The notes under the pieces are model-generated. The model saw only the letters and a list, made by a program, of their open reading frames with translations. It made no database searches and had not been told where the DNA came from. A program made the position numbers and the translations under genes. A stretch of 5,558 nucleotides of DNA from a virus. Taxonomy: Duplodnaviria > Heunggongvirae > Uroviricota > Caudoviricetes. Location of the stretch: IMG/VR virus record IMGVR_UViG_2711768068_000018, positions 1-5,558 of that record, one strand, 5' to 3'. This document shows positions 1 to 5,558 of this stretch, in pieces. The number at the start of each line of letters is the position of its first letter. Positions within the stretch are counted from its first letter, which is position 1.

Positions 1-152
1 ACCCAGACACGCAGAGTCTCCGGCGTACAGCCAATCTTTGGAGCAATGGAACAAATTGTCGCCCATTGTGAGTCATATTCGCCCTGACTTTCCAGAACCA
101 TACGGGCTGCCCGTTGACGGACTTCAGGGGAAAAACGAGTATTTTTAGTCAT
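1..152 (-). CDS. IS3-family transposase OrfA, N-terminal part (partial, runs off window)
   Basis: Hand translation of the reverse strand from ATG at 152-150: [50 protein letters not shown]..., matching the recalled N-terminus of IS629/IS1203-type OrfA (HTH region). A GAGG-type RBS lies upstream on the minus strand (gagaaagaggtaaacagg before ATG). Not in the ORF track because it has no stop within the window. Confidence 0.8.
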
Positions 153-206
153 CCTGTTTACCTCTTTCTCAGGAAGTTTAGTCTCCAGGATTCCCGGGGC
201 GGTTCA
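1..206 (-). mobile_element. IS3-family insertion sequence (IS629/IS1203-like), left end only; element continues beyond the window start
   Basis: Minus-strand OrfA starts at 152 and runs off the window. Plus-strand 201-206 GGTTCA is the reverse complement of the TGAACC terminus of IS3-family inverted repeats (minus strand reads TGAACCGCCCCGGGAATCCTGGAG...), so the element/flank junction is placed at 206/207. Family assignment is from recalled similarity, not a search. Confidence 0.7.
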
Positions 207-298
207 TTTGCAGGAACTTATTTTTCACAGACAGCAATGATGCCTGTCAATATATTATTAATATGCGGATTGTTTCAGTTACAGATGCTTTATTAAGG

Positions 299-340
299 AA
301 AAAACAGCCAGCACTGACTTTCGGTGGAGAGGTGCTGGCT
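299..340 (-). terminator. Putative intrinsic terminator acting on minus-strand transcripts
   Basis: Perfect 9-bp inverted repeat 306-314 (AGCCAGCAC) / 332-340 (GTGCTGGCT), with a possible inner 5-bp extension (318-322 / 327-331) around a GGTG loop. On the minus strand it is followed by a run of six T (plus-strand A run 299-304). Confidence 0.4.
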
Positions 341-475
341 CAAAAGGATAGTTGGATTTCACATGATACTTATATCTGGCAGTACATTTTCTGACAGACA
401 GTGACGGGGGGTGTCAAGATATTGTGTCATTTATAACCTGAGTCAGGGGGGGCCCCTATTAAGTTGTCAAGCATG

Positions 476-1672
476 TTATGACGCCTGCGGGGTATAAAAA
501 GTCCCGTCGCGCATCATGGCGAACAGAACGTCGCAGCGTCGTCTCGCCAGGGCGATAAGCGCCTGATTGTGTCGTTTTCCCTGACTCATTTTGCGGGTGT
601 AGTAAGCCCTGGAGAGCGGATCCCTGAGCGCGGCGAAGGCCGACAGGAACAACGCCCGTTTGAGAGCTTTATTACCCCGTCGCGAGGGATGCTCACCGCG
701 TATTGACGAGCCGGATCGCCGAGTTACCGGCGCAAGGCCAGCATAAGCAGCGAGATGTGCGGCAGAGGCGAAGGCGCGGCAGGCGACCTCGGTGAGGAGT
801 CTGGCTGCGGTCCTGACACCGACTCCGGGCATACTGGTCAGGACCGGGTAAAGAGGGTGAGCAAGAACTCGCTGTTCTACCTCAAGCGCCACCTCGTCTC
901 TTTGCTTACGCAGCGTGATGAGCTGGAGTGCCAGACGTGGCAGTACTACGGCAGCGGCATTCGTGCCGGGAACGACGACGGTTTGTTCGGCCAGTGCCTG
1001 AGCTATGTCTGCTGCAAGGCGTTTACCCAGACGAGGCGCAAGTTTGCAGAGCTGGGCTGCCAGCTTCTTCTCACCCAGCGAAGCGAGTTTTTCTGGTGAG
1101 GGATATCGCTGGAGAAGATCGAGTACCGCCGGGTGATCAAGTCTCGGACCGAGAACGCGCTCCAGTGCCGGATGTATCTGGGTCAGAAGGCCGCGGATAC
1201 GGTTGCTGGCCTGCGTTGTCTGTGCGGCAAGATCATCATCGAAGCCGCAGAGCATGGAGAGTTCGGCGATTTGCTCGTCAGCCAGTTTCAGCGTGCGTAG
1301 CGCGTGAGGCAGGGTACGGGCAGCTTCGGCAATGATGGCAGCGTCACGAGCATCAGTTTTAGCTTCACCGGCGTGTAAGTCGGCTATGCGGCGCATGGCC
1401 AGTCCAGGGAGGTATCCGACAAGGACTCCTTCTGAGCGGGCAACGGCGACAGGTAACGCACCGATGGTAGCTGGCTGATCAACAACCAGCAGTATCTGAC
1501 CATGTTGTTTCAGGTCAGATATTAGCGACCTGAGTTTGTTTTCGTCGTTGGGTAATGCTTTATCGAACAGGCGTTTACCTGAACGATTAATGGCTACAGC
1601 GTGATGCGTATCTTTACCGACATCAACGCCGATAAAGACCTGGACGGATTCGTAATCGCTGGATTCGGTCAT
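476..1672 (-). CDS. IS110-family transposase / DEDD-type recombinase
   Basis: 398-aa ORF. N-terminal VFIGVDVGKDTHHAVAI is the hallmark first Asp motif of the RuvC-like DEDD domain of IS110-family transposases; the C-terminal region has YAGLAPVTRRSGSS, the conserved Ser-containing motif of the family's Tnp domain. AGGGAG Shine-Dalgarno 6 nt upstream of the ATG on the minus strand (1673-1690). Confidence 0.9.
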   Translation of the reverse strand: MTESSDYESVQVFIGVDVGKDTHHAVAINRSGKRLFDKALPNDENKLRSLISDLKQHGQILLVVDQPATIGALPVAVARSEGVLVGYLPGLAMRRIADLHAGEAKTDARDAAIIAEAARTLPHALRTLKLADEQIAELSMLCGFDDDLAAQTTQASNRIRGLLTQIHPALERVLGPRLDHPAVLDLLQRYPSPEKLASLGEKKLAAQLCKLAPRLGKRLAADIAQALAEQTVVVPGTNAAAVVLPRLALQLITLRKQRDEVALEVEQRVLAHPLYPVLTSMPGVGVRTAARLLTEVACRAFASAAHLAAYAGLAPVTRRSGSSIRGEHPSRRGNKALKRALFLSAFAALRDPLSRAYYTRKMSQGKRHNQALIALARRRCDVLFAMMRDGTFYTPQAS

Positions 1673-1689
1673 TCTGTCTCCCTTGTATA

Positions 1690-1870
1690 TGGGTTAACCA
1701 GATAACCACGGGGAGCAGGTACCGGCATCCACGTTACAGACGGTCCCGGCAAAAGTGCCTGACCTGACCCCTATTAGCGGTTACCAGCGCCCCACCAGAC
1801 CCGGTGACATCACCCCCCGGATCATGGACGACTGGGGGCAGTAATCATGCCGGGTCTGGCTGGCTAACAC
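1690..1870 (-). ncRNA. Candidate bridge RNA (IS110-type guide RNA) in the 5' leader of the IS110-family recombinase; hypothetical
   Basis: About 180-200 nt GC-rich non-coding leader between the putative -10 (minus strand TATAAT at 1879-1874) and the recombinase RBS, with no plausible ORF. In the IS110 subgroup (e.g. IS621) the bridge RNA is encoded in exactly this position. Structure not verified by eye. Confidence 0.25.
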
Positions 1871-1965
1871 CCCATTATAAGGGGTACGAATAAAGTAACG
1901 GGGCCGGAATGTTATCTGGCATTTTTAGCAGAGCCTGAATGCCATAATCACGGCTCCCGGCGTTG

Positions 1966-1999
1966 GCCGTCAGTGGGTGACACTGGCGGCTTTTTGTTT
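1966..1999 (+). terminator. Strong intrinsic terminator, tR'-like, upstream of the lysis genes
   Basis: 10-bp stem 1966-1975 (GCCGTCAGTG) / 1981-1990 (CACTGGCGGC, one G-U pair), 5-nt loop GGTGA, followed by TTTTTGTTTT (1991-2000). Its position just before the holin gene matches lambdoid tR' at the end of the short late leader (6S) transcript. Confidence 0.6.
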
Positions 2000-2045
2000 T
2001 CCTTTACTTTCATTTTCTGTCGGCGGTGACGGAGACATACATCAG

Positions 2046-2252
2046 ATGGAAAAAATCACAACGGGTGTGTCATACACCACGTCAGCGGTGGGGACGGGAT
2101 ACTGGCTACTGCAGTTGCTGGACAAAGTCTCTCCGTCCCAGTGGGTGGCAATAGGTGTACTGGGGAGTCTGCTGTTTGGCCTGCTGACGTATCTGACTAA
2201 CCTGTATTTCAAAATCAGGGAGGACCGCCGTAAGACGGCGCGGGGGGAGTAA
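2046..2252 (+). CDS. Holin, phage-21 S-like class II pinholin (68 aa)
   Basis: Translation [68 protein letters not shown] closely resembles recalled phage 21 S68 / E. coli EssD-type holins. Two TMDs (Gly/Ala-rich TMD1, hydrophobic TMD2) and a charged C-tail. The ORF-track start at 1977 is a GTG inside the terminator loop; ATG 2046 with a GGAGA Shine-Dalgarno (2030-2034) is the likely true start. Confidence 0.85.
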
Positions 2253-2256
2253 AGCG

Positions 2257-2616
2257 ATGAAGAAAAAATACGAACTGGGTGTTAAAGGGATAAATAATTA
2301 CCCGGATAAGATTACTGTTACTGTGGCACTGGAAATTGGTGGGTATCCGTCACTGTTGTTGCCAGATGTGGCGATTAGTCTTGACCGTACTGAAGGTGCC
2401 ACGCTGGAGTTTTACGAAGCTGAGGCGAAAAAGCAGGCGAAGCAGTTTTTCATGGATGTTGCTGCCGGGTTATGTGAAGGGGATGGTCCGTTGCCGGAAA
2501 AGCGGCCCATCATTTTAGAGGCGCAGGATGTGTTGATAACCTACAGAGGAAAACTACCGGGAATAATTACTGGTTCTCTGAAGACTACTGAAGACTTAAC
2601 ATATCCAGGGATTTGA
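2257..2616 (+). CDS. Hypothetical soluble acidic protein (119 aa) between holin and endolysin
   Basis: ATG 4 nt after the holin stop with a GGGGGGAG Shine-Dalgarno at 2242-2249, indicating translational coupling. No TM segment and no motif I recognise. This position is empty in phage 21 and lambda. Confidence 0.7.
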   Translation: MKKKYELGVKGINNYPDKITVTVALEIGGYPSLLLPDVAISLDRTEGATLEFYEAEAKKQAKQFFMDVAAGLCEGDGPLPEKRPIILEAQDVLITYRGKLPGIITGSLKTTEDLTYPGI

Positions 2617-2641
2617 AATCGATAAATCCTGATAAATATCC

Positions 2642-3175
2642 ATGAACGCAAAAATCAGATACGGCCTGTCGGCTGCCGTTCTGGCGCTGATTGGTGCAGG
2701 GGCGTCTGCGCCTGAAATCCTCGACCAGTTTCTGGATGAAAAGGAAGGTAACCACACCACAGCATACCGTGATGGTACGGGTATCTGGACCATCTGCCGC
2801 GGTGCCATCCTGGTGGATGGTAAACCTGTCGTCCCGGGCATGAAGTTGTCGAAGGAAAAATGCGACCAGGTTAACGCCATTGAGCGTGATAAGGCGCTGG
2901 CATGGGTGGAGAAAAACATCAAAGTGCCGCTGACCGAACCCCAGAAAGCGGGGATCGCGTCATTCTGTCCGTACAACATTGGTCCCGGTAAGTGTTTCCC
3001 GTCGACGTTTTACAGACGAATTAATGCAGGTGATCGAAAAGGTGCCTGCGAAGCGATTCGCTGGTGGATTAAGGACGGTGGCAGAGACTGCCGTATTCGT
3101 TCAAACAACTGTTACGGTCAGGTATCCCGTCGTGACCAGGAGAGCGCGCTGGCGTGCTGGGGAATCGACAGATAA
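2642..3175 (+). CDS. SAR endolysin (GH24 T4-type lysozyme family, phage-21 R-like)
   Basis: 177 aa. N-terminal weakly hydrophobic Gly/Ala-rich signal-anchor-release segment (YGLSAAVLALIGAGASA), then E35/D44/T50 in the spacing of the GH24 lysozyme catalytic triad (EGNHTTAYRDGTGIWTICRG). Overall collinear with recalled R21 and E. coli RrrD-type lysozymes. Confidence 0.92.
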   Translation: MNAKIRYGLSAAVLALIGAGASAPEILDQFLDEKEGNHTTAYRDGTGIWTICRGAILVDGKPVVPGMKLSKEKCDQVNAIERDKALAWVEKNIKVPLTEPQKAGIASFCPYNIGPGKCFPSTFYRRINAGDRKGACEAIRWWIKDGGRDCRIRSNNCYGQVSRRDQESALACWGIDR

Positions 3176-3314
3176 GAAGAATATTTTGCTGAAAAATGAG
3201 GTTTGCTTACATGGACGGATAACACGAAATCCTGCAAATTGGCAAAATGTAAGTGAATAAAGTCAAAACAGTTGTTTAACACTCAGGCACCGTAATGATG
3301 CCTTTGTCATTTCT

Positions 3315-3336
3315 GCGCATCTCACGCGCATCTCAC
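3315..3336. repeat. Perfect tandem duplication of an 11-bp unit (GCGCATCTCAC x2)
   Basis: 3315-3325 and 3326-3336 are identical, in the intergenic region about 110 bp upstream of the Ant-like gene. Confidence 0.6.
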
Positions 3337-3445
3337 AACACAGAACCTTTCAGGATGACCCTTGAGGATACCGGTTTGGCTGTCGGTGCCTTTCTGTGGG
3401 CTGGATTCCTGTGAGACAAGGTTCATCACTAAAAGGAAATAACCG

Positions 3446-4015
3446 ATGAATATGATGGCCGTGCCGTTTCACGGCAACTCTCTTTATGTAGTTAACCATA
3501 ATGGCGAACCATACGTTCCCATGAAACCTGTCGTTGCGGGGATGGGGCTGGCCTGGCAATCACAGTTGGCTAAGTTAAGACAGCGTTTTGCGTCAACTAT
3601 AACGGAAATCGTTATGGTTGCTGAGGATGGGAAACAACGCAATATGGTGTCCATGCCACTTCGAAAACTTGCCGGCTGGCTACAAACCATTAATCCCAAC
3701 AAAGTAAAACCCGAAATCCGCGATAAGGTCATCCGGTATCAGGAAGAGTGCGACGATGTTCTTTACGAGTACTGGACGAAGGGTTTTGTCGTTAATCCCC
3801 GTAAAATGAGCGTGATGGAAGAACTCAACCAGGCTTGTGCTGACATGAAACGGGATAAAAACATTGCCAGTGTGTTTGCTACCGGGCTGAATGAGTGGAA
3901 ACAGGTTAAAGCCGCGCATGTATCAAAAATCCGTACGCTGGTAAATGAAGCGAATATGCTGATTGATTTTGTCCTGGCTGATACAGGCAAAGGGAAAATA
4001 ACAAAGGCGGATTGA
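3446..4015 (+). CDS. Putative antirepressor-like protein (Ant/AntA N-terminal-domain type), 189 aa
   Basis: ORF with an AGGA Shine-Dalgarno (3433-3436). The N-terminal region (VPFHGNSLYVVNHNGEPYVPMKPVVAGMGLAWQSQ...) resembles, from memory, antirepressor N-terminal domains annotated in enterobacterial prophages. Domain family not confirmed by a search. Confidence 0.7.
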   Translation: MNMMAVPFHGNSLYVVNHNGEPYVPMKPVVAGMGLAWQSQLAKLRQRFASTITEIVMVAEDGKQRNMVSMPLRKLAGWLQTINPNKVKPEIRDKVIRYQEECDDVLYEYWTKGFVVNPRKMSVMEELNQACADMKRDKNIASVFATGLNEWKQVKAAHVSKIRTLVNEANMLIDFVLADTGKGKITKAD

Positions 4016-4026
4016 TGGGGTGGCTA

Positions 4027-4161
4027 ATGATATCAGATAAACTCATAACGCTGGTGAAGAGCCTCTGTGTACTTGTCGGCATTTCATTTTTAGTCATGCT
4101 GGTTGCCATTTTCTTTTCCACCGCCTGGCGAGTCCTGACGTTATCGGGACTGGTGGGGTGA
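4027..4161 (+). CDS. Possible small single-pass membrane protein (44 aa), not in the ORF track
   Basis: ATG 4027 to TGA 4159-4161: [44 protein letters not shown]. One hydrophobic helix. Tiles exactly between the Ant-like stop (4015) and the Rz start (4169); GGGG 6 nt upstream. Could be a chance ORF. Confidence 0.3.
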
Positions 4162-4168
4162 AAGAGAG

Positions 4169-4636
4169 ATGAACCGTGTTCTGTGTGTGGTGATTATTGT
4201 CATGGCGGTTGGCTGTGGTGCGCTGTGGCTGGCAACAAACCATTACCGTGACAACGCGCTCACCTACAAAGCGCAGCGCGATAAAAAAGCCAGAGAGCTG
4301 GAACAGGCGAATGCCACCATTACTGACATGCAGGTGCGCCAGCGTGATGTTGCTGCGCTCGATGCAAAATACTCGAGGGAGTTAGCCGATGCGAGAGCTG
4401 AAAATGAAACTCTGCGTGCTGATGTTGCCGCTGGTCGTAAGCGCCTGCGGATCAACGCCACCTGCTCCGGTACCGTGCGTGAAGCCACCGGCACCTCCGG
4501 CGTGGATAATGCAACCGGCCCCCGACTGGCAGACACCGCTGAACGGGATTATTTCATCCTCAGAGAACGGTTGATGACAATGCAGAAGCAGCTGGAAGGG
4601 GCACAGGACTATATCCGCACTCAGTGCCTGAACTAA
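4169..4636 (+). CDS. Rz: Rz inner-membrane spanin (i-spanin)
   Basis: 155 aa with an N-terminal TMD ([19 protein letters not shown]) then [32 protein letters not shown]...[24 protein letters not shown], collinear with recalled lambda Rz. AGAGAG Shine-Dalgarno at 4163-4168. Confidence 0.93.
4389..4574 (+). CDS. Rz1: Rz1 outer-membrane lipoprotein spanin (o-spanin), embedded in a different frame within Rz
   Basis: 61-aa ORF wholly inside Rz in another frame. Signal peptide plus lipobox (LVVSAC, Cys20) and a proline-rich mature part ([33 protein letters not shown]) that is nearly identical in pattern to recalled lambda Rz1. GAGGGAG Shine-Dalgarno 7 nt upstream. The true start may be Met6 (4404). 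Confidence 0.85.
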
Positions 4637-4998
4637 GTTTTGCTGATGCGCCGTATCGTCGCCGTATTCCTGCATTAACAGAGACCGCAGCCCGACAGGG
4701 AGACTCCTCTGCGAGAGTGTGCGGGGATAATCAAAAACGATACACACCGGGGTTTACCGCGTAAACGGAGCGCGGCGTTCTCCCCTCATGGTCGCCCGTC
4801 CGGTGCGATGGTGGAAGAAACTGGAATCTGTTCAATAAAAAAACTGCCGTGTTGGAGTCACAGCAGTAATGTACTGATTGGGTAGAAGATTATTATTGTT
4901 ATGCTTTATTCTTATTCTATATGGCTGATTATTTCAATTCGGAATTAATACAGCTAATGTCTGTGAGTTTTTATAAATTCAGCAATATAAAGAAATAG

Positions 4999-5226
4999 TT
5001 ATATGAACAGCCATCGCAGAGCATACTGTGTATCATTCTTTTTTATAGTCAACTGACGGGCATATTTTATGTCTGCTGCCAGCTCCCGGCGGCAAGATTC
5101 AATGACCCACGCAGAAAAATTTTCTGAACCTTTCTGGTCAAGAGCGATGTTAATTTGTTCAATCATCTGGTTTGGAAATCGGATGTTGCGGGTTGTTGTT
5201 CTGCGGGGCCGGTTTTTCGATGACAT
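4999..5226 (-). CDS. Small DUF3950/YlcI-YnfO-like protein, possible ribbon-helix-helix DNA-binding fold (75 aa)
   Basis: MSSKNRPRRTTTRNIRFPNQMIEQINIALDQKGSENFSAWVIESCRREL... resembles recalled YlcI/YnfO-family small prophage proteins found beside terminase genes. AGAGGA-type Shine-Dalgarno on the minus strand just upstream of the ATG at 5226. Confidence 0.65.
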   Translation of the reverse strand: MSSKNRPRRTTTRNIRFPNQMIEQINIALDQKGSENFSAWVIESCRRELAADIKYARQLTIKKNDTQYALRWLFI

Positions 5227-5267
5227 TTTCTTTCCTCTGGTGACAAGCTATATGGCGAGGATTTTAC

Positions 5268-5558
5268 ATGGCTGTGCTTCGTACGTTACCGGGCAGAATC
5301 AAAACTCTGAACACCCGGCGGGTGAATATTCTGAAGGGTGAACAGCGTCGTGTCAGTGGCAGTGCACGTGTTTCCCTCAAGCGTCATATCTGGCTCAGGG
5401 ATGCCGGGCAGTGCTGTCTCTGTGGTCGTGTGGTTGACCTCTGTGACAGTGAACTCGATCACCGCATTGCACTTCAGTTCGGTGGTGGTAATGAGGAGAC
5501 GAATCTCTGGACGCTCTGTACCGAATGCCATCGACAAAAGTCTGCTCGTGAAGCGGCG
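5268..5558 (+). CDS. HNH endonuclease, phage packaging-associated type; 5' part, runs off window end
   Basis: Hand translation from ATG 5268 (GAGGA Shine-Dalgarno 5257-5261) gives 97 codons with no stop: MAVLRTLPGRIKTLNTRRVNILKGEQRRVSGSARVSLKRHIWLRDAGQCCLCGRVVDLCDSELDHRIALQFGGGNEETNLWTLCTECHRQKSAREA. CxxC...DH...N...CxxCH is the canonical HNH zinc-finger nuclease motif. Missing from the ORF track only because it has no stop within the window. Confidence 0.85.
   Translation, partial: MAVLRTLPGRIKTLNTRRVNILKGEQRRVSGSARVSLKRHIWLRDAGQCCLCGRVVDLCDSELDHRIALQFGGGNEETNLWTLCTECHRQKSAREAA

Follow-up and report, generated by a model that had tools for sequence, protein, structure and literature searches.

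Is the short open reading frame (ORF) that separates two genes of a phage lysis region itself a gene, and if so what might its product do? The question is posed by positions 1 to 5,558 of the Caudoviricetes record IMGVR_UViG_2711768068_000018; this whole stretch of 5,558 nt is termed the window here. It is the lysis region of a Shiga toxin (Stx)-type lambdoid prophage of Escherichia coli. Around the ORF, 401 bases are shared with 100% identity by many O157:H7 chromosomes and with 99–100% identity by Stx1 and Stx2 phages. Matches that cover at least 80% of the window are found in only four complete E. coli genomes. The ORF lies on the plus strand (4027–4161), running from a conserved ATG at 4027 to a TGA stop codon at 4159–4161, with 44 codons before the stop and a single predicted transmembrane helix in its product. 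The stop codon of the upstream Ant-like gene is the TGA at 4013–4015, which leaves 11 nt (4016–4026) before the ATG, and the stop codon of the ORF is followed after 7 nt (4162–4168) by the ATG of Rz at 4169. The coordinates between these two genes given by the initial annotation are thus correct. Its description of an ORF wedged between Ant and Rz applies to the window but not to the family as a whole, which has other neighbours on either side elsewhere.

The analysis presented below indicates that the 44-codon ORF is very probably a real protein-coding gene. Taken as a whole, the explanation that best fits the observations is a real small membrane-protein gene that acts as a lysis-phase modulator and forms an accessory module; we hold this complete reading at slightly less than even confidence.

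Conservation of the reading frame

Related DNA was gathered from IMG/VR and from annotated E. coli and phage records. There were 175 loci with enough flanking sequence, reducing to 48 distinct segments of 300 nt that contain 28 distinct alleles of the core and encode 23 proteins. The IMG/VR loci were found through intact stretches of the peptide, so the sample leans towards intact copies. Within the 135-nt core there are no insertions, deletions or stop codons in any of the 28 alleles, and the position of the terminal stop codon is identical in all of them. The ratio of non-synonymous to synonymous substitution rates (dN/dS, calculated by the Nei–Gojobori method) is 0.43–0.46 in the frame of the ORF, the lowest of the six possible frames. 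The antisense frame that shares its wobble position has a value of 0.49, and the other four lie between 0.8 and 1.4. The proportion of synonymous differences (pS = 0.26) is at the level of the holin and lysozyme R genes (0.26–0.28), and the dN/dS is like that of Rz (0.41, or 0.29 outside the region that overlaps Rz1).

The nature of the changes was compared with a null distribution in which the 77 observed variants were re-dealt to random sites carrying the same base. The observed set comprises 30 synonymous and 47 non-synonymous changes, with none to a stop codon and six to a polar or charged residue or to proline, where the corresponding null means are 24.5, 49.9, 2.6 and 12.9. The probabilities for single measures run from P = 0.067 for the synonymous changes through 0.04 to 0.0076 for the changes to polar, charged or proline residues, with a joint probability of ∼1e-4. 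Synonymous variants number 30 in the ORF frame, compared with 15–22 in the other five. The ORF is therefore conserved as such and not merely as DNA, as the initial annotation had proposed to check: synonymous variants are commonest in this frame, which is free of insertions, deletions and stop codons. The constraint is real but moderate, as expected of a membrane helix that tolerates exchanges between I, L, V, M and F.

Frameshifts or stop codons in close homologues had been named as observations that would count against a gene. Among 30 evenly spaced matches in E. coli genomes the ORF is an annotated coding sequence in all, and one (L190) is frameshifted. Frameshifted or read-through variants are few in the protein databases, in clusters of one or two sequences, where intact clusters contain up to 67. 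Broken copies are thus rare, and the pattern stands; such copies are expected of decaying prophages. The frameshifted copy (L190, positions 2501–2632) has the sequence MSDKLITLAKILCVIVGISFSLMLVALRLDDVVFVGDAGVRGI. Its shifted frame ends at the overlap with Rz and still comprises 43 codons, so that an intact length in an annotation table is not by itself proof of an intact gene.

The two ends of the ORF vary with their surroundings. The type of C-terminal tail tracks the downstream junction: one type, together with three single-residue variants of it, is found with RzA in 18/18 segments, and tails of the AWM and AWV types occur with RzB or RzC or with small membrane ORFs. The 5′ part varies according to the upstream context. 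Together these point to recombination joints located inside the ORF.

Start codon and ribosome-binding sites

The reading frame is also open upstream of 4027, through an optional in-frame N-terminal extension (4012–4026, plus strand) that contains two further possible start codons. Beginning at TTG 4012, which is the start chosen for the published gene XECs191 (see below), the frame spans 4012–4161 and encodes 49 amino acids. The RefSeq start is ATG 4015, overlapping the Ant stop codon as TGATG. A Shine–Dalgarno (SD)-like sequence GGGGTGG lies at 4017–4023 on the plus strand, upstream of ATG 4027, with a duplex free energy (dG) of −7.1 kcal/mol with the anti-SD sequence. The SD-like sites of the starts at 4012, 4015 and 4027 all have this dG, which may be compared with −6.8 for Rz and −5.6 for Ant; the ribosome-binding site that had been suggested for the 44-codon ORF is plausible on this basis.

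Comparison of alleles separates the three starts. The family occurs in three unrelated upstream contexts, following a P22_AR_N Ant gene, a 60-amino acid membrane protein (phrog_1115; tm60) or a KilAC-type Ant gene or its remnant. The extension is absent from the tm60 and KilAC contexts, where the sole start is an ATG directly before the conserved sequence SDK, preceded by AAGGGAGGA (dG −11.3) or AAGGGG (dG −8.4). A Met located 0–1 residue before SDK, with an SD-like element, is common to all three contexts, and the inner Met equivalent to 4027 is present in 48/48 distinct segments. The upstream ATG is put out of use in four of the 32 distinct Ant-context alleles, by a TAG (L071) or TGA (L111 and L112) stop codon or by being out of frame (L099). 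Since the inner Met is universal and the upstream ATG is not, the start at 4027 is better backed by comparison than that in RefSeq, and we favour it as the conserved and best-supported start on the strength of the alignment. Translation in this allele may also begin at 4015 or at 4012, giving 48 or 49 residues.

From the alignment, the 3′ end of the ORF and the following spacer (4153–4168, plus strand; GGTGGGGTGAAAGAGAG) carry the ribosome-binding site of Rz, for which the dG is that given above. The ORF ends with GGGGTGA in 44/48 distinct segments and with GGAGTGA in the other four, irrespective of the gene that comes next.

Predicted structure and topology of the product

The 44-residue peptide is strongly hydrophobic, with a grand average of hydropathy of 1.73 and a Kyte–Doolittle value of 2.82 for the best 19-residue windows (residues 12–30 and 13–31). 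AlphaFold2, using an alignment of 19 sequences, returned one helix extending from residue 2 to 39 with a mean predicted local distance difference test score of 88.6. Hydropathy and structure prediction agree on the single hydrophobic helix that was originally noted. From hydropathy and conservation the predicted membrane-spanning core comprises residues 12–34 (4060–4128, plus strand). D4, K5, C14, G18, S20, F21, W34 and L37 are near-invariant even when the most divergent members are included, and the length is invariant. The product is likely to be a membrane protein.

K5 and K11 are near-invariant and are located N-terminal to the core, and position 35 is Arg in some alleles only. The conserved lysines precede the hydrophobic core, and by the positive-inside rule we infer an N-in/C-out orientation, in which the N-terminus would be cytoplasmic and the 10-residue tail would lie in the periplasm.

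Existing annotation and evidence of translation

The ORF was at first taken to be unannotated. This is true of the 1999 record of phage 933W, where it carries no annotation, but not of RefSeq or of several phage records, e.g. that of vB_EcoS_P27 (gp79). RefSeq/PGAP lists the hypothetical protein WP_000539792.1, with 48 amino acids from ATG 4015, at the corresponding position of a locus that is 100% identical. The sequence matches the family phrog_4906 (PHROGs v4, function unknown) with E = 5.4e-30, residues 1–48 aligning with positions 2–49 of the 49 in the profile. The divergent members P0058 and P0071 match the same family with E = 2e-19 and 8.4e-11.

The third source is a study of novel genes in E. 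coli O157:H7 Sakai by Hücker et al. (2017; PMC5597208), in which the gene XECs191 was classed as ‘real’ and predicted by the authors to encode one transmembrane helix and to be located in the inner membrane. The XECs191 peptide (S10 Table of PMC5597208; 49 amino acids from a TTG start) is identical to the translation of positions 4012–4158 of the window. The gene has therefore already been catalogued, in all three sources as hypothetical or of unknown function; WP_000539792.1, XECs191 and phrog_4906 are identical in sequence to the ORF, and the only difference is in the chosen start, which is 4015 in RefSeq, 4012 for XECs191 and 4027 as favoured here. No functional study was found in the literature on WP_000539792 or on Stx-phage lysis cassettes.

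Ribosome footprints, a further check proposed at the outset, have been published for XECs191 and are weak (PMC5597208). In Luria–Bertani medium the transcriptome and translatome values were 30.0 and 12.6 reads per kilobase per million mapped reads (RPKM), with a ribosome coverage value of 0.43 and a coverage of 0.55. The corresponding values were 26.4 and 1.7 RPKM, 0.13 and 0.46 in the brain–heart infusion control, and 5.0 and 0.8 RPKM, 0.16 and 0.32 under stress in the same medium (PMC5597208).

Occurrence in two types of lysis cassette

A 150-nt query had 4654 matches, spread over 1749 of the 5426 complete E. coli genomes and numbering at most 11 in any one genome. Where the source of a protein cluster is named, it is E. 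coli or one of its phages (53/53 clusters). When 1.84 billion representative sequences were searched with a profile, only 29 matches were returned, all of them members of the same family or partial or frameshifted copies of it; the search thus revealed no distant relationship to a known family and nothing to suggest a piece of a larger protein. The sole match in a scan of one genome per species is a contig of 328 bp labelled Xanthomonas pisi (L087, NZ_JPLE01000251.1), encoding a peptide that is 93% identical; this is probably contamination of the assembly.

The ORF is located downstream of an endolysin gene at every locus with enough flanking sequence. The usual order is S21-type holin, DUF1327 at some loci, lysozyme R, Ant or the 60-amino acid ORF, the small ORF and Rz. 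Insertions are found between the small ORF and Rz, comprising either membrane ORFs of 60 and 28 amino acids (L006, L177 and L098) or a methylase-like gene encoding 314 amino acids (L101). A different arrangement is found in cassettes of the phiP27 type, which contain the more divergent members P0058 and the protein of L189. These cassettes encode Phage_holin_8, Phage_holin_3_7 and a GH108 endolysin but have no Rz nearby. There the ORF again follows ANT or the 60-amino acid protein, and is itself followed by a small putative lipoprotein (phrog_7528). Many cassettes of the S21/R21/Rz kind lack the ORF, and in many genomes the match to the 401-nt query is confined to its Rz part. In the Qin prophage of K-12 rrrQ is followed directly by rzpQ, and the ORF is absent. 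The presence of the ORF in two unrelated types of lysis cassette and its absence from many others indicate a portable accessory module and not a core lysis gene. It is tied to no single holin, endolysin type or Rz.

Some of the accompanying genes were also characterized. The 60-amino acid protein matches phrog_1115 with E = 6.6e-42 and has a dN/dS of 0.20 (L003 2306–2488; L189 2309–2491). The 28-residue peptide has a weak match to phrog_4493 and a dN/dS of 0.36. The ORFs of L006 at 2249–2404 and 2416–2502 are small single-helix members of these 60- and 28-amino acid families in the interval between R and Rz. The 314-codon ORF of L101 (2641–3585), lying between the small ORF and Rz, starts with MKEMNSSLYHGDCLEIMP, which we take to resemble the N-terminus of a DNA methyltransferase. 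The phrog_7528 protein (L183 4141–4322; L189 2649–2861) has 60–70 amino acids. Its N-terminus is long and basic, and it also contains a hydrophobic stretch and a motif, LVGC, that resembles a lipobox; it may be a spanin-like lipoprotein.

Comparison with known membrane proteins of phages and hosts

The product of the ORF has no match in sequence searches of Pfam (E up to 0.1), NCBIfam, PADLOC or the PDB. It matches no curated holin family in Pfam at the same threshold, and the cassette has its own holin gene elsewhere, at 2046–2252 (PF04971). In holins the last membrane helix is generally followed by a C-terminal domain that is hydrophilic and highly charged; the tail of this peptide (MALTSAGLVG in other alleles) contains at most one charged residue. 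Antiholins commonly, though not universally, arise from a second start within the holin gene or from an adjoining gene. Here two or three genes separate the ORF from the holin gene, and the ORF accompanies S21-type holins as well as the Phage_holin_8 and holin_3_7 cassettes. Antiholins and holin modulators such as lambda S107, phage 21 S71, T4 RI and P1 LydB are like the peptide in being small membrane-associated products of a lysis region that could shift the timing of permeabilization. They differ from it in that the ORF is neither within nor next to the holin gene, has no homology to holins or antiholins in Pfam, and occurs with two unrelated sets of holins. A dual start of the holin/antiholin kind was considered and found no support; the MGWLM extension adds no positive charge, which sets it apart from the dual-start antiholins, and it is closed in some alleles.

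An i-spanin of the Rz type shares with the peptide a single N-terminal helix of predicted N-in/C-out orientation, and the ORF usually adjoins Rz. Yet its product has no match to PF03245 and is only 44 amino acids in total, and with ∼10 residues after the helix it can have no periplasmic coiled-coil able to reach Rz1. Hok/Gef, TisB, MgrB and AcrZ are also inner-membrane proteins of 28–50 amino acids with one hydrophobic helix, but they have no sequence similarity to the peptide, and the ORF lies within a phage operon and does not stand alone. Of the features of a type I toxin, there is no Pfam match and no Rfam family (E up to 1), and the minus strand of 4000–4200 contains no promoter-like site. 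No defence model in PADLOC-DB (E up to 0.1) matches the ORF, its Ant neighbour or the other small membrane ORFs. Further parallels are the 60-amino acid (phrog_1115) and 28-amino acid (phrog_4493-related) neighbours, which occupy the same interval between R and Rz, have a single helix and are often directly beside the ORF. They belong to different sequence families, and the 60-amino acid protein has a polar N-terminal part of 25 residues followed by a C-terminal helix. The features tested argue against membership of the holins, the i-spanins or the type I toxins, and nothing typical of antiholins was found. The roles raised by the initial annotation, as an antiholin, a holin modulator or a superinfection-exclusion factor, are not established by these comparisons.

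Possible role in lysis, and alternative explanations

The ORF shares its strand with the genes for the holin, the endolysin and Rz/Rz1. A crude consensus scan of the plus strand between R and Rz revealed no sigma-70-like site, and with no promoter of its own detected the ORF is most probably expressed from the late transcript, shortly before lysis. The product would be a single-pass protein of the inner membrane with 44 residues and the N-in/C-out orientation. Its place of action might be the cytoplasmic membrane during lysis, with an effect on the timing or the manner of the membrane step. Its travel among unrelated holins and endolysins, and its dispensability, favour modulation through a general property of the membrane or a membrane partner of the host, and the peptide would not then act upon a specific holin. 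The role of lysis-phase membrane modulator is our best guess and a tentative one, in which late-operon expression, topology and function in lysis are each inferred steps.

A number of observations weigh against this proposal. The ORF is dispensable for lysis, since many cassettes with a related Rz do without it, including that of Qin in K-12. The dN/dS is above that of the holin, R and Ant genes (0.10–0.15, with 0.10 for the holin and endolysin), so the constraint is only moderate, and the excess of synonymous changes does not by itself reach significance (P = 0.067). Part of the conservation may be due to linkage, as the 3′ third of the ORF goes strictly with the kind of gene that lies downstream. 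The helical periodicity of conservation is likewise not significant (P = 0.06–0.14). The XECs191 footprints are near the lower range of that study, and come from an uninduced lysogen with several near-identical copies; they are no demonstration of late expression. The promoter scan, being crude, leaves some room for expression in the lysogen. Lastly, none of Pfam, NCBIfam, PADLOC or the PDB provides a family match that is suggestive of function.

Alternatively, the ORF may be a moron, or lysogenic-conversion gene, expressed in the lysogen or soon after induction, whose product would act on the host membrane independently of lysis, e.g. by superinfection exclusion or by modulation of a host membrane protein. 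The interval between R and Rz is a hot spot for accessory insertions (two types of Ant, the 60- and 28-amino acid membrane ORFs and the methylase-like gene), RNA and footprints were present in uninduced Sakai cultures, and the module moves among unrelated lysis cassettes as a self-contained accessory function would. This is possible but rather doubtful: the plus strand from R to Rz showed no promoter-like site, the signal in uninduced cultures is low and may reflect spontaneous induction, and there is no match in PADLOC or to another family. Moreover the ORF is tightly packed in the operon, overlapping or abutting its neighbours, and carries the ribosome-binding site of Rz. A second alternative is a translated spacer, in which translation serves to deliver ribosomes to Rz or the next gene and the DNA provides a patch of homology for recombination between lambdoid cassettes, with a peptide that is irrelevant. 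The stop codon 7 nt before the Rz start or overlapping it as GTGA, the retention of the GGGGTGA end ahead of different downstream genes, the recombination joints inside the ORF (a 5′ part that follows the upstream context, and a tail linked to the junction, 18/18 with RzA) and the merely moderate amino-acid constraint are all consistent with this. It is nevertheless improbable, because replacements avoid polar and charged residues beyond chance (P = 0.0076) and a mere spacer needs neither an invariant length nor near-invariant residues. In addition, Rz is translated without the ORF in the cassettes that lack it, and the ORF is kept where no Rz follows.

It is very improbable indeed that the ORF is not a gene at all, whether an open frame in conserved intergenic DNA or something incidental to a functional RNA or to the antisense ORF of 71 codons (3906–4121, minus strand). 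The ORF is short and belongs to no family of known function, and one antisense frame is free of stop codons in 28/28 alleles with its dN/dS of 0.49. But the sense frame has the most synonymous and the fewest polar, charged or proline changes of all six frames, and footprints have been published for it (PMC5597208). A stop codon in the antisense frame requires a Tyr, His or Gln codon in the sense frame, and the peptide contains none of these, so the openness of the antisense frame is explained by composition. An antisense gene was rejected as a candidate in its own right, the wobble-sharing frame having fewer synonymous variants (22 versus 30) and more changes to polar, charged or proline residues (20 versus 6), and the antisense ORF extends into Ant, which precludes its conservation in contexts without Ant. 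An RNA element was rejected also: there is no Rfam match, the folding is not unusual (z = −1.3 and −1.1 for the two strands) and a hairpin at 4131–4152 is not kept in other alleles.

More speculatively, phrog_4906 could be the first of an unrecognized class of portable lysis-timing factors that includes the other small membrane ORFs of the interval and works independently of the holin. We regard this extension as unlikely. Such a factor could act on, e.g., the membrane potential or a host membrane protein, and so set the lysis of Stx prophages and the release of toxin.

The surrounding genes of the window

The genes of the window were assigned using Pfam. Just upstream of the holin gene lies an IS110-family transposase gene (476–1672, minus strand), which is annotated as ISEc20-like in similar genomes. 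A strong terminator-like hairpin (11 pairs and a T run) is found at 1965–1991 on the plus strand, between the insertion sequence and the start of the holin gene. The holin is a class II protein of the phage 21 S-type with 68 amino acids (2046–2252, plus strand; PF04971, E = 3.5e-32), and it has a single Met start in the window. The sequence at 2037–2048 reads ATA CAT CAG ATG, where the common O157 allele (L001) has ATG TAC CAG ATG (MYQM). With ATA and CAT at these positions the holin of the window has only the downstream Met, without the second start of the common allele. The sequence 5′ of 2037–2048 is likewise unlike that of L001.

The holin gene is followed on the plus strand by a DUF1327/YdfR gene (2257–2616) and by the phage lysozyme R (2642–3175; PF00959), which has a hydrophobic N-terminus. 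The cassettes of Stx phages have been described as being of the signal-anchor-release (SAR) endolysin/pinholin type (PMC8136144), and the N-terminus of R is of the kind that this literature calls a SAR endolysin, making R a putative SAR endolysin from its sequence. The gap of 270 nt between R and the Ant-like gene (3176–3445) contains no convincing ORF and no promoter-like site on the plus strand. Weak terminator-like hairpins are located at 3369–3388 and 3458–3476. The Ant-like protein (3446–4015, plus strand) has P22_AR_N (PF10547, E = 1.4e-45) and ORF11CD3 (PF10549, E = 5.5e-6) domains. The Ant of phage Phi24B that has been described in the literature is the product of a different ant gene, sited before the late terminator.

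Downstream of the small ORF, Rz (4169–4636, plus strand; PF03245, E = 4.9e-50) encodes the i-spanin. The o-spanin lipoprotein gene Rz1 (4389–4574, plus strand; PF06085, E = 1.7e-21) is embedded within it in the +1 frame. In many related loci Rz is followed by a gene for a hypothetical protein of 74 amino acids (L001 4261–4485) that matches part of phrog_2571. The equivalent in the window (4660–4884) is broken, with two stop codons in its translation, and the window is thus among the loci that lack this protein.

Implications

About one-third of complete E. coli genomes carry the gene, and strains of the O157 type have as many as 11 copies. It is absent from K-12, in which most of the biology of small proteins has been studied. 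What is added here to the existing catalogue entries is comparative evidence of protein-level constraint on the frame, a start codon that is better supported than that of RefSeq, and the recognition of a mobile accessory module that is found in two unrelated types of lysis cassette and is bound neither to Rz nor to one holin. In Stx prophages one late region contains both the toxin genes and the lysis cassette, and toxin exits when the phage lyses the cell. A factor that shifts the timing of lysis could therefore change both the amount of toxin that is released and the time of its release.

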